Origin: Polyangiales bacterium
GTDB lineage: Bacteria; Myxococcota_A; Polyangia; Polyangiales; Ga0077539
DNA length: 64,000 bases
Direction of reading: 5' to 3'
Assembly: GCA_044229975.1 (NCBI GenBank)
Contig: JBGARZ010000001.1
Coordinates: 864,001 to 928,000 of the forward strand
Positions 60,195-64,000 of the stretch are shown here, one piece after another. Both the position numbers and the translations under genes were made by a program. The notes below the pieces were generated by a model. The model worked only from the letters and a program-made list of their open reading frames with translations, ran no database searches and was not told where the DNA came from. Position 1 is the first letter of the stretch, and each line of letters opens with the position of its first letter.

Positions 60195-61190
60195 TCAGCT
60201 CTGCGGAACCATCGCGACGTCCGCCCCCTCCGCGAGGCGGAAGCGCACGCCGCCGTCGTAGCGGTCGAGCAGCGCGCCGCCGTCGATGTCCGCGCGCACG
60301 AGGTCTTTGCGGGTGCGAAAGACCAGCGTGTTGAGCTCGACGCGGCCGCCCTGCTTGCCGCCCGGCCACACCCGCGGGATGAGCACCTCGTCGGGCACGA
60401 GATCACCCGCCGCGTGCGGTGCCGGAGGGAAGAGCAGCGTCGCCACGAGGTCGCAGCGTCGATCGGCGAGCCAGAGCGTTCGCTCCCACGAACCGTAGCC
60501 CACGGTCAGTCGCCCGCCGCGCGGAAGAAATTCCAACCGTGCCGCCCGCGGCAGCTCGACCCCCGACTCCGGGGCTGTCGCGGTCTCAGGCCCCGTCGAC
60601 GCCGACACCAGCCGAAGCGATTGACCGAGGTGACGCACCACGGTGCCCGAGCGCACGGCCACCACCGCGGCCTCCTGCAGCGGGCCGTCGCAGTCCACCC
60701 CCGCGACCCCCGTCTCCATCACCAGCGCACGCTGCACCAACGAAAACGTCAGCGCCGCCGCTGCCCATCCGGGGATGTGCAGGTCGTCGCGCTCGTCGCC
60801 GCCCACCGTGAAGGGGCTCTCCGCGATGCGATAGAACGCCCCCGCCGCCGACTCGACGCCCCACACACAATCCGCGCGAACGACCTTCGGCGCCGGCGTG
60901 CTCACCACGCGAAAGGCCCGCCCGCACACCGCGAGCCCGTCGCCATCTCGCAGCGTCGCGACGGTCTGCACGGGCGCGTCGTTGACCCGCACCGGCGCGC
61001 GTCCGAGCACCATGAGCTCGACGCCGTCATCCACCGGTCGCAGCAGGAGCTGATGTCGGCTGACCCGCGAGTCGGGCAACACCACCTCGCAGTCGGTGCT
61101 GCGCCCGAGGAGCAGCCCGCCGTGCCGGACGAGCACCCGGCCGAGGTCACCCTGGAGCCAGTACTGGCGGGCCTGGTCGCGTTCGCGCAT
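60195..61190 (-). CDS. FHA-domain protein with a second degenerate FHA-like region and a C-terminal OmpR-like winged helix
   Basis: LGRSTDCEVVLPDSRVSRH (FHA GR/SR); C-terminal VPDEVLIPRVWP...NTLVFRTRKDL resembles Trans_reg_C. Confidence 0.7.
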   Translation of the reverse strand: MRERDQARQYWLQGDLGRVLVRHGGLLLGRSTDCEVVLPDSRVSRHQLLLRPVDDGVELMVLGRAPVRVNDAPVQTVATLRDGDGLAVCGRAFRVVSTPAPKVVRADCVWGVESAAGAFYRIAESPFTVGGDERDDLHIPGWAAAALTFSLVQRALVMETGVAGVDCDGPLQEAAVVAVRSGTVVRHLGQSLRLVSASTGPETATAPESGVELPRAARLEFLPRGGRLTVGYGSWERTLWLADRRCDLVATLLFPPAPHAAGDLVPDEVLIPRVWPGGKQGGRVELNTLVFRTRKDLVRADIDGGALLDRYDGGVRFRLAEGADVAMVPQS

Positions 61191-61213
61191 CGCCAAGCGA
61201 TATCAACCGACGG

Positions 61214-62761
61214 TCAGTAGTGCACGCCCGACGCGATCTGCCGCGAGCCCGGGAACCCGGTGCCCGCCCACACGCCGTCGAGGAGGTCCATGGCGAGTCC
61301 CCAGCGACGCACGGCCGTCCGACCGCGCGCCCCGTCGAGGTCGTAGCGCACATCGCGCAGCGACGTGATGACCGCGGGCCGGAAGAACATCGCGTGTGCC
61401 AGCTTCACGCGGAAGAAGTCCTCGGGAGAGACCAGCGCGTCACGGTCGAGTCCGCGCACTGGTCCCTCCATGGGCATCGCCTGGCGCAGACGCCACGGCA
61501 TCTTCTCCAACGCGATGGCCGCGAAGCTATGGTGATCGGCCGTGTGGAAGGTCGACACCGTGCAGAGGTACGTCGCCACGGCGCGCGCGAGCACACCGCC
61601 CCGCGCGATGGCGCCGCCGTCGGGGTAGCCCGGCAGCCACGCGGCGATGTGGTCGGCCCAGGCGCGCACGTGCACGTCGTCCGCGGCGACGCCGTCGAGC
61701 GCCTCGGCGACGAAGCCCGTCCACGCCTGCAACCACACCTGACGAAAGCGCCCGTACGAAACATGCGCTCCGGTGAAGAGGTCGCCGAAGCGCCACGCGG
61801 GCCACGCCGGGTTGCGCGCGACGCCCTGTCGACCGGCGACCACCATGCGGTGCATCCCCTCGGTGGTGTACGGGAAGGGGTTGTAGAGCTCGCGCTGCGA
61901 GTTGTGGATGCTCGATCGTCGGTGATGGATCACCGACTCGTGGAGCCCGAGGGTGAAGCGGGTGTGGGGTTCGATGAGCCGCCGTACCGGGTGACGCCGC
62001 GGGAGCACGGAGCGCGTGACGGCGTTGATGACGTCGGCCGGGAAGTGCAGCCGCGGATGCGCCGCCGTGACAAGGCGCACCTGCGCCGATTGCAGCGCGT
62101 ACCAGCGAGCGAGCCGCCACGCGTCGCCCTCGTCGGGCGTGACGATGCGCGCGTGCACCCGGATGGCCGCGACGGACCACGGGTCGCCCTCGCGGCGCAG
62201 CAGCACGACCACGGGCGCGGTGTGGACGCCCGGCAGCAGCTCGTCGAGCGCCGCGACGCTGAAGTCCATCGTGGCGTACACGCCGGGTGAGCGCGCCATC
62301 AGCGGATGGAAGTCCTCGCTCGGGGCGCACTCGTCGGCGAGCGCGACAAACTGCCCGAAGCTCGTGGTGGTGAGCAGCGAGGCGAGCTCGCCGTCGTCGA
62401 CGTCGACGAGTCGTGGCCCGCGCAGGGCCTGCGACGCCGCGGCGGGCACCTCGCTGACCATCTGCCGCAGGTAGCGCGAGACGATGAAGCGCACGTAGTC
62501 GACCCGATCGCCCGCCGGGACATTGAGCACCGGCGCATAGAACTCCGGGTCGATGACCGGCTCCTGCGGCCACGGCCCTCGCACGCCCCGCGGGTGCCGC
62601 GGAGCAGGCGCGTCGATGCGCCCCGCGCCCCAGGGCATCGGGCTGAGGCGCGGCGAGTCGGTCCACGTGGTGGGGGCGCGGAGGAGCGACCCCATGAGGG
62701 AGAGCGCGTCGTCGGAGGCCGGGCTGTCGGGTGCGGTGGTGGTGCGGGCGGGGGCGTTCAT
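61214..62761 (-). CDS. Divergent lipoxygenase-family protein
   Basis: WRLARWY...AHPRLHF...LPRRHPVRRLIEPHTRFTLGLH aligns with the LOX W.LAK...H..TH...L...HP..LL.PH...T..IN signature; TVSTFHTADH with TAS..HAAVN; C-terminal IASGVHY with IPNSINI. Confidence 0.7.
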   Translation of the reverse strand: MNAPARTTTAPDSPASDDALSLMGSLLRAPTTWTDSPRLSPMPWGAGRIDAPAPRHPRGVRGPWPQEPVIDPEFYAPVLNVPAGDRVDYVRFIVSRYLRQMVSEVPAAASQALRGPRLVDVDDGELASLLTTTSFGQFVALADECAPSEDFHPLMARSPGVYATMDFSVAALDELLPGVHTAPVVVLLRREGDPWSVAAIRVHARIVTPDEGDAWRLARWYALQSAQVRLVTAAHPRLHFPADVINAVTRSVLPRRHPVRRLIEPHTRFTLGLHESVIHHRRSSIHNSQRELYNPFPYTTEGMHRMVVAGRQGVARNPAWPAWRFGDLFTGAHVSYGRFRQVWLQAWTGFVAEALDGVAADDVHVRAWADHIAAWLPGYPDGGAIARGGVLARAVATYLCTVSTFHTADHHSFAAIALEKMPWRLRQAMPMEGPVRGLDRDALVSPEDFFRVKLAHAMFFRPAVITSLRDVRYDLDGARGRTAVRRWGLAMDLLDGVWAGTGFPGSRQIASGVHY

Positions 62762-62827
62762 CGGTCCTCCGGGAGCGTCGGTGACTGCGGGGAGTCACTT
62801 CGCACCTGGCGGGCCGCGCGGCCGATG

Positions 62828-63613
62828 TCAGCCGATATCAACCACCGACTGGCGGCCCTTCACGCGCGAGATCACGCGCCCCACGAAGAAGGGCCCCATG
62901 CGGTCCATGAACTCGCCCGTCTGGCGGGTCTTCCGCATCGACTGGATGACGTGCGAGAGCGGGTGCAGCTCCTTGCCGACGAGCCCGATGACGAAGTCGT
63001 TGTCGTTGCTGTCGAGGCCGTGGCAGGCGAGGCGGATGTCGTGCGCCAGGTCCTTCTCCCCGTACGCGCGGCCGATGGTCCCGTGCTCGCGGAGGATGGC
63101 GCCCTGCTCCTTCGGATCGAGCCGACTGAAGGCCCCGGTGCGCTTGAGCGGGTACCACACCGCCCAGTCCCAGCCCTCGTGCATCACGGTGTCGCGCGGC
63201 CGATCGAGCAGCCAGTGGGTGAGGTCGCTCTCGTACCCGGTGCTGTACGTTCGCCCGAACATCGAGAACTCCGGCCGCGACCGCCACGGCGCCACGTCCG
63301 TCGCGCGGTTGCACTCGCGCACGATGTCGTGGACGCGGGTCACGAAGTGCGCCGGGTCTTCGCTGAAGGTGAGCAACCCGAGGCCCTGCGGGTGGTTGGC
63401 GTCGGCGTAGAGCACCGCCGGCACGCCGCCCAGGGTCAGCGCCTCTTCGAGCTGGTGCAACGCCGCGTCGAAGTTGGACGGGTGCTCGAACACTAGGAGC
63501 TGCATGAAAAGTCGCCGGTTGCTCACCTGCGGGACGCCGTCCTTGGGCGCTCCCCGCTCGCTCACGTCCACCGCCGGGAGATCGCCTGGGCCGTGCTTCG
63601 TCGCGTCGCTCAT
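62828..63613 (-). CDS. Chlorite dismutase-family heme protein, probably coproheme decarboxylase (ChdC/HemQ-like)
   Basis: WYPLKR (Y-P-x-x-R), ILREHGTIGRAY (proximal His), GLDSNDNDFVI, MR, GPFFVG. Confidence 0.75.
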   Translation of the reverse strand: MSDATKHGPGDLPAVDVSERGAPKDGVPQVSNRRLFMQLLVFEHPSNFDAALHQLEEALTLGGVPAVLYADANHPQGLGLLTFSEDPAHFVTRVHDIVRECNRATDVAPWRSRPEFSMFGRTYSTGYESDLTHWLLDRPRDTVMHEGWDWAVWYPLKRTGAFSRLDPKEQGAILREHGTIGRAYGEKDLAHDIRLACHGLDSNDNDFVIGLVGKELHPLSHVIQSMRKTRQTGEFMDRMGPFFVGRVISRVKGRQSVVDIG

Positions 63614-63661: not shown

Positions 63662-64000
63662 TCAGGAGGCGGACGAACGGGCGGTCGACGCGCGTTCACG
63701 GTCTTCGCTCACGCAGAGCGCGAGGTAGAGGCAGTCGAAGACGAAGATCATCGTGTAGAGGAAGTACGTGAACGAATACGTCGTGGGCTCGACGACGTGC
63801 GGATGCGTGCGGAGGTGGCCGTCGACAAACTGCGCGGGCCACCACGTCGCGAGGAAGAACGACCCGGCGAGCGTCCCGATGAGCTTGAGCCACGCGACGT
63901 GGGTGGAGAGCCCGACGCGCCCCGGCCGCGAGAGGTGGAAGAGCGGGTACGCGATGCTCATGACGAGGTTCATGGACATCGACGAGGTGACGCCCTTGAG
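63662..64000 (-). CDS. Membrane protein (5' end off window), possibly a Pyr4/PaxB-like transmembrane terpene cyclase
   Basis: NLVMSI...SR...GLSTHVAWLKLIGT...FVFDCLY resembles the C-terminal half of that family; only 112 codons are visible. Confidence 0.45.
   Translation of the reverse strand, partial: LKGVTSSMSMNLVMSIAYPLFHLSRPGRVGLSTHVAWLKLIGTLAGSFFLATWWPAQFVDGHLRTHPHVVEPTTYSFTYFLYTMIFVFDCLYLALCVSEDRERASTARSSAS

Follow-up and report, generated by a model that had tools for sequence, protein, structure and literature searches.

A predicted sister branch of the lipoxygenase fold with a shortened histidine pair and an aromatic C-terminus, encoded in a Polyangiales bacterium and in other bacteria

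The window analyzed here is a stretch of 64,000 nucleotides from the genome of a Polyangiales bacterium, and the features in Table 1 are numbered within it unless a prefix is given; papers are cited by accession. The reverse strand carries an intact open reading frame for a 515-aa protein ending in SGVHY, with a GC3 of 0.91, between a HemQ/chlorite dismutase-like gene and an FHA-domain gene. At the locus of the closest relative (L001), a similar FHA gene likewise lies downstream. A Pyr4-like terpene cyclase gene, here in a bacterium, is found two genes upstream of the reading frame on the same strand. Because neither the HemQ-like nor the Pyr4-like gene has a counterpart beside any other family gene among the fetched loci, a heme or terpene role read from these neighbors was ruled out.

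Table 1. Features of the lipoxygenase (LOX)-like locus, of the host genome and of related loci
Feature	Position	Strand	Basis or remark
ORF, 515 aa; LOX catalytic fold at residues 56–515, no PLAT domain	61214..62761	-	Profiles and model
GGAGG, likely ribosome-binding site, 5–9 nt upstream of ATG	62766..62770	-	Seen in sequence
HPRLH, His235 and His239, predicted metal ligands 1 and 2	62045..62059	-	Both His 147/147, Pro236 110/147
HTADH, His406 and His410, predicted ligands 3 and 4	61532..61546	-	His 146/147 each
SGVHY end, Tyr515 carboxylate, predicted fifth ligand	61217..61231	-	Tyr/Phe 142/147; pairs with terminal Ile/Val column
HPVRRLIEPH, structural H-P-x2-L-L-x-P-H motif of LOXs	61964..61993	-	Sequence comparison
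Residues 273–285, remodeled arched-helix region (Leu273, Val277, position 281)	61907..61945	-	Offsets, Table 1 of PMC5437038
Phe460, Leu in Fe-LOXs, Phe in two fungal Mn-LOXs	61382..61384	-	Phe/Tyr 128/147; Table 1 of PMC5437038
Arg96-Tyr97, helix 83–114, candidate fatty-acid carboxylate binder	62471..62476	-	Arg 128/147, Tyr 131/147
HemQ/chlorite dismutase-like gene, 66 nt upstream of LOX-like ORF	62828-63613	-	Same strand
FHA-domain gene, 17 nt downstream of LOX-like ORF	60195-61196	-	Same strand
Pyr4-like transmembrane terpene cyclase, 250 aa (L153)	63662-64000, on to G000:C32:928414	-	PF25129, E 8.8e-14
Second intact family member, 558 aa, HGMLH / HAGDH / SIQY (L014)	G000:C33:170549-172225	+	35% identity to query
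Two tandem ordinary LOXs, 592 and 557 aa (L015, L016, L154)	G000:C32:481267-490058	-	Directly upstream of 1757-aa kinase-STAND-cyclase-type gene
Ordinary LOX, catalase-like gene, divergent STAND gene of LOX-linked clade (L156)	G000:C19:443449-452705		Catalase-like PF00199, E 5.7e-6
Divergent ordinary LOX, 549 aa, facing divergent P450 (L155)	G000:C39:206362-209656		P450 PF00067, E 2.1e-5
PUFA synthase genes: pfaD and pfaA over cutoff, third large gene behind	G000:C10:41775-53342	+	Profile matches
Still more divergent LOX-fold relative: H-x3-H, HAADH, terminal Phe	L050:7909-9324	-	E 8e-28 to family profile
Ordinary LOX overlapping start of family gene, then kinase-STAND gene	L132:2-4481	+	Gene order

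A first-pass annotation, made from the sequence, had described this protein as a small divergent LOX with three LOX-like motifs, without a PLAT domain or an obvious signal peptide. Translation of the reading frame confirmed the three motifs at the places described, HPRLH being residues 235–239 and HTADH residues 406–410, and put HPVRRLIEPH at residues 257–266. The protein also proved to be free of a PLAT domain, because residues 1–82 of the structural model hold no β-barrel, and no signal peptide was apparent, the best 12-residue hydrophobicity mean being 1.05 in a crude scan that is not a trained predictor. By the same crude scan, an N-terminal hydrophobic stretch above 2.0 was seen in just 3 of 147 relatives. 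When used alone, the query matched no Pfam or NCBIfam family at E 0.1, gave a weak match to rabbit 15-LOX (E 9e-4 across 65 residues), and scored 9 bits against PF00305, below the gathering cutoff of 23.6.

A word search recovered 61 relatives of the query, and a second word search with a wide profile added none. The full search of 1.84 billion representatives returned 282 matches at E 0.001, 209 at 1e-10, and 126 at 1e-30, and the best 150 of the 282 were taken as relatives. From 205 proteins, we aligned 147 with 21 to 79% identity to the query, after the exclusion of 40 that were shorter than 420 aa, 10 near-copies, and 8 that looked frameshifted or truncated (8 of 165 long matches). The family comprises about 280 clusters at 50% identity, most of which are missed by Pfam: the PF00305 cutoff was passed by 4 of 50 distant relatives, and a PF00305 search of the host genome found neither of its two family genes. 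Among the matches listed, the closest named relatives are from Myxococcales/Polyangiales assemblies (77% and 61–64% identity). Named members come from Enhygromyxa salina, Minicystis, Polyangium, Halobacteriovorax, Flammeovirga, and Alteromonadaceae, as well as from Acidobacteriota and Actinomycetota assemblies, and most are annotated as "hypothetical"; one is a "Lipoxygenase domain-containing protein" and one cluster member a "lipoxygenase." The distribution is sparse: of 401 genomes from the phylum, 6 (host included) have a full-length match, as do 5 of 49 from one taxonomic family. No relatives were found in 71 candidate stretches of viral contigs, and no longer fused forms among 7,982 candidates, the latter being weak evidence. 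The branch may be wider than sampled, as suggested by the still more divergent relative at L050. That protein has no Pfam match, and its neighborhood includes an ordinary LOX gene and one for a patatin-type phospholipase.

Profile and structural comparisons both led to lipoxygenases. Profile searches against the PDB gave a first E of 1.8e-9 and a best E of 1.6e-17, and all 55 rows were lipoxygenases. AlphaFold2 run on the alignment produced a model with a pLDDT of 95.7 and a pTM of 0.94; the model obtained without the alignment (pLDDT 33) was not used. Foldseek matched the model at E 2.6e-13, with a lipoxygenase in every row among the matches listed. In a structure search of 48,161 chains, the 12 with Z above 8 were all lipoxygenases, the next fold having a Z of 4.8. 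The best of these matches had a Z of 29.1 and an rmsd of 2.8 with 436 residues aligned; lipoxygenase matches overall had Z values of 22–29 at 12–17% identity to solved LOXs. The structural alignments span residues 56–515, and residue 515 was the last aligned in 48 of 50 rows. The lipoxygenase fold put forward in the first-pass annotation is thus upheld by profile and model, although the check it had suggested against PF00305 fails for the query alone.

A profile–profile comparison with 24 ordinary LOXs of the same phylum (probability 100, E 9.8e-41, 417 columns) brought every ligand into register: the first His pair was matched by His235/His239 with a single gap, H-x3-N by His406/His410, and the terminal Ile/Val column by Tyr515. 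ESM Atlas offered clusters with PF00305 on 34–75% of members (score 0.97), a lead only, given its low recognition value. In an unrooted tree of 49 family members, 24 ordinary controls, and one odd relative, the family and the controls were split with a support of 100, with long branches flagged and about 1.9 changes per column between the family and ordinary bacterial LOXs; this tree, the other protein tree, and the STAND tree described below were all built with FastTree only. The family is therefore predicted to have the fold of a lipoxygenase catalytic domain. Although it is predicted to work like a lipoxygenase, we assign it to a sister branch of that fold, because the query falls below the Pfam cutoff and the H-x4-H pair, the terminal Ile/Val, and the defining features of fungal Mn-LOXs that were examined are lacking.

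His235, His239, His406, His410, and the carboxylate of Tyr515 are predicted to hold one metal ion. This four-His, terminal-Tyr site had been proposed at the outset as the mark of a bacterial subfamily, and as a family trait it stands, with the ligand set conserved in 142–147 of the 147 relatives. Its distinctiveness has to be narrowed, as His is an ordinary fourth ligand: PMC13059375 lists "His, Asn or Ser" for this position, and porcine 12-LOX (3RDE) has H-x3-H at its second ligand pair in the profile alignment. It is the Tyr/Phe C-terminus that is unusual, a 2026 review giving Ile, or on rare occasions Val, as the last residue of every lipoxygenase (PMC13059375). The last residue of the 147 relatives is Tyr in 106, Phe in 36, and another residue in 5, and never Ile or Val. 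Since 36 proteins end in Phe, the Tyr hydroxyl appears dispensable, and the fifth ligand is likely the C-terminal carboxylate. Conservation of HPxxH and of the terminal Tyr, which the first-pass annotation had suggested examining, was complete for the two His and partial for Pro and for Tyr. Asp409 is family-specific and near-invariant (Asp in 137, Glu in 9, and Asn in 1 of 147), and H-x2-[DE]-H is found in 145 of 147 relatives.

The spacing of the first pair separates the two groups without exception. All 24 ordinary LOXs of the phylum have H-x4-H and an Ile/Val end, with a His1-to-His2 distance of 5, versus 4 in all 147 family rows. As the distance from Trp to His1 is 20 residues in both groups, we read H-x3-H as a true one-residue deletion relative to ordinary LOXs. 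Homologs with canonical H-x4-H and Ile, which would have pointed to decay of this copy, were not found among the 147. We also considered the iron LOX of Myxococcus fulvus, given as "His376 + His372" in PMC6612559, as an example of H-x3-H and rejected it, for the Gly359 and Ala410 reported there fit His367. Judging from these other numbers, the entry is likely a typing slip.

Around the metal site, the substrate channel looks remodeled, judging by offsets from Table 1 of PMC5437038. Leu273 is by offset the equivalent of the clamp Ile, and the Ala/Gly switch and the Leu clamp both look altered: the switch offset falls on Val277 (Val in 135 of 147), and the Leu-clamp offset on position 281, which is variable and polar with no aliphatic residue (Arg 53, Asp 18, Pro 14 of 147). 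These assignments may be off by one to three residues; a 3-residue insertion would bring Val/Ile/Leu (117 of 147 at 284) to the clamp site, and a 1-residue shift would bring Ala/Ser/Gly (128 of 147 at 276) to the switch site. The helix of this region ends at residue 279 in the model. The Leu clamp is described as invariant among Fe-LOXs and fungal LOXs of class I, and there is hardly any activity in fungal LOX-fold proteins that carry Cys at this site (PMC12383934). Arg96 may be the equivalent of Arg182 of coral 8R-LOX, which binds the fatty-acid carboxylate (PMC13059375). In addition, Pro236 takes the place of a channel-lining residue, and the Glu/Gln found four residues before His1 in 21 of 24 ordinary LOXs is hydrophobic in the family.

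The Mn-LOX of Gaeumannomyces carries HVLFH, with H-x3-H spacing, and the first-pass annotation had seen in the same spacing here a possible sign of manganese. The spacing proved to be no marker of that metal, as the ligands of the M. oryzae Mn-LOX (His284/His289; docking study, PMC10997076) are five apart and the model is no nearer to the Mn-LOXs. The two fungal Mn-LOX profile matches had E values of 2.9e-6 and 2.3e-5, versus 1.6e-17 for the best Fe-LOX, and ranked 52nd and 54th of 55; a short-region profile aimed at the Mn-LOX His segment did not have 5FNO or 5FX8 among the matches listed. The model gave Z values of 27.0 and 26.2 against the Mn-LOXs, versus 28–29 (best 29.4) against animal Fe-LOXs. 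By profile and structure comparison, the family is not nearer to Mn-LOXs than to Fe-LOXs, and from these low profile ranks and Z values we conclude that the short His spacing likely arose separately from that of the fungal enzymes. A signal-like N-terminus (by crude scan), a terminal Val, and an Asn fourth ligand, all features of fungal Mn-LOXs, are absent from the query. The His1+1-to-clamp-Ile offset is 37 in Gaeumannomyces Mn-LOX, as in the family, 38 in M. salvinii, and 37 in Cyanothece CspLOX1 (PMC5437038, Table 1). Bacterial LOXs described in PMC5437038 and PMC6612559 contain iron, and we consider iron to have a slightly better than even chance of being the metal here. Manganese comes somewhat short of even: the sole precedent for the short spacing is a Mn-LOX, the Phe460 site points the same way, and stronger donors would suit manganese.

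Twelve close loci had no neighbor gene in common. Across 97 family loci (one further locus without a scoring match was dropped), a STAND NTPase gene lay within 1.5 kb in 29, on the same strand in 26 of these, and in 20 of the 51 loci whose flanks both reach 1.5 kb; the background, taken from the host genome alone, was 1.2% of random places. Fourteen of the neighbors, all initially detected with Pfam, served as seeds for the search profile. These STAND proteins have AAA_16 fused to a Ser/Thr kinase, GAF, adenylate cyclase, histidine kinase, or TPR domain. The loci are not independent, and counted as clusters at 50% identity, 13 of 26 have a STAND neighbor, with 6 changes on the tree; on the query's own branch, it is 0 of 18. 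Ordinary LOXs of Myxococcota resemble the family in this respect, with a kinase-STAND-GAF neighbor in 9 of 20 loci of other genomes. In a tree of 47 of the 49 STAND domains (2 short ones were dropped), a clade with a support of 100 united all 10 ordinary-LOX neighbors, 8 family neighbors, and one further host gene, and a second clade held 11 other family neighbors. The further host gene, checked after the tree was made, is separated from an ordinary LOX by about 2 kb that include a catalase-like gene. Based on the neighbors, the product is likely to serve, across the family, as a signal for the adjacent STAND kinase/cyclase protein; for the query copy this role is weaker, because its locus has no STAND neighbor. 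Genes of the fatty-acid hydroxylase/sterol desaturase family PF04116, too few to interpret, lie near two family genes (L047:10054-11046 and L049:6773-7489).

The host genome also has four ordinary LOX genes (Table 1). The arrangement at L156 resembles a cassette for hydroperoxide conversion that includes its own receptor, and the P450 at L155 may have a CYP74-like role. Similar catalase-like genes adjoin ordinary LOXs at L145 and L148. Neither catalase-like nor P450 partners of this kind were found in the family loci. With its PUFA synthase genes and 12 desaturase matches over cutoff, the host is, by gene content, likely able to make a polyunsaturated fatty-acid substrate.

We predict that the query is probably a fatty-acid dioxygenase, and likely a cytoplasmic, single-metal enzyme that adds oxygen to polyunsaturated fatty acids. 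This reading is favored because site and fold are both retained, family genes stand in the genomic position otherwise taken by ordinary LOXs, and an ordinary LOX is seldom found beside them. As in lipoxygenases, a metal(III)-hydroxide would pull a bis-allylic hydrogen, O2 would add to the fatty-acid radical, and the hydroperoxide would be released. The short His helix, the Val switch, the absent Leu clamp, and Asp409 may alter the product position, the rate, or the side reactions.

Two rivals remain, given the rebuilt channel and second shell and the near-inactivity of fungal proteins with similar alterations (PMC12383934, PMC13319228). The protein could retain the metal site yet act on another substrate, or serve as a slow lipid or redox sensor for the STAND protein. 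The combined changes in clamp, switch, and second shell, the long branch to ordinary bacterial LOXs, the frequent abutment of family and STAND genes on one strand, and the class II fungal LOX-fold proteins that bind metal with only nominal activity (PMC12383934) all agree with this; retention of the whole catalytic domain (436 residues aligned), the genomic slot shared with ordinary LOXs, and the lack of any recurrent biosynthetic gene hinting at another substrate among the scanned neighbors make it rather unlikely. More doubtful still is a role confined to the isomerization of hydroperoxides. In a fungal Mn-LOX, isomerase activity goes up when the switch residue is bulkier (G316A), and poor access of oxygen has been proposed to explain such activity in eLOX3 (PMC13319228, PMC13059375); the one-residue shift described above would instead leave a small residue at the switch. 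The four ordinary LOX genes of the host could supply hydroperoxide, and at L132 an ordinary LOX is followed by a family gene and then a STAND gene, an arrangement resembling the two-LOX-plus-STAND units of ordinary LOXs, but an ordinary LOX lies within the fetched flanks of only 1 of 97 family loci, so that there is usually no local supplier. That the query is a decaying copy of an ordinary LOX is scarcely credible, despite its low PF00305 score, the broken-looking long matches, and the broken frames at L011 and L054, and is refuted by the recurrence of this unusual ligand set in several phyla, among relatives with as little as 21% identity, and by an excess of synonymous over amino acid-changing differences against three relatives (0.36/0.14, 0.40/0.24, and 0.52/0.24, uncorrected), with an intact paralog in the same genome also speaking against it.

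The nearest known systems each share part of the picture. PLAT-less bacterial iron LOXs (Cyanothece CspLOX2, 5MED; Pseudomonas, 4G32; Enhygromyxa, 8X8F; and myxobacterial LOXs) have the same fold (Z 25–28), consist, like the query, of the catalytic domain only, and have their His ligands and C-terminus in the same register; the family differs from them in its altered clamp and switch and its separate, fully supported branch. The 24 ordinary Myxococcota LOXs combine H-x4-H, H-x3-N, and an Ile/Val end, where the family has H-x3-H, H-x2-D-H, and a Tyr/Phe end. Animal ALOX15 and leukocyte 12-LOX (1LOX, 3RDE) are among the best sequence and structure matches and share the His fourth ligand, but have a PLAT domain, H-x4-H, and a terminal Ile, at 13–15% identity. 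Fungal Mn-LOXs (Gaeumannomyces, 5FX8; Magnaporthe, 5FNO) resemble the family in lacking PLAT, in their non-Ile end, and in the Phe at the Leu506-type site; unlike it, they are secreted, end in Val, have an Asn fourth ligand and a Gly switch, and keep the Leu clamp. eLOX3 and the class II fungal proteins, likened here by their published description only, combine the LOX fold with changes in channel residues, show hardly any or no ordinary dioxygenase activity, and serve as models for the two rivals.

The family is real and conserved, and it is apparently undescribed. We found no description of the branch or of a LOX–STAND link in a literature search confined largely to openly accessible papers, and the accessible text of PMC3669278 and bioRxiv 2022.06.21.497025 holds nothing on the branch. 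A 2022 survey of over 4,700 bacterial LOX sequences in nine clusters, as cited in PMC13319228, may contain a few members.

In this family, hundreds of proteins retain the fold with joint changes in terminal ligand, His spacing, second shell, and channel clamp, which makes it a natural experiment on how a fold chooses between iron and manganese and between dioxygenase and isomerase activity. Members occur in named isolates (Enhygromyxa salina, Flammeovirga kamogawensis, and Halobacteriovorax sp. JY17) and are therefore directly testable, and new product specificities would serve as biocatalysts. The role of bacterial LOXs is poorly known, and the LOX–STAND link, seen with both gene types and one STAND clade, names a candidate receptor. 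There is an outside chance that this is a separate bacterial branch of the LOX fold that came to manganese chemistry independently, with its short His helix, four His, added Asp, and aromatic terminus, and that a dedicated STAND kinase/cyclase receptor senses its oxidized-fat product; if true, it would constitute an undescribed eicosanoid-like signaling module of bacteria.
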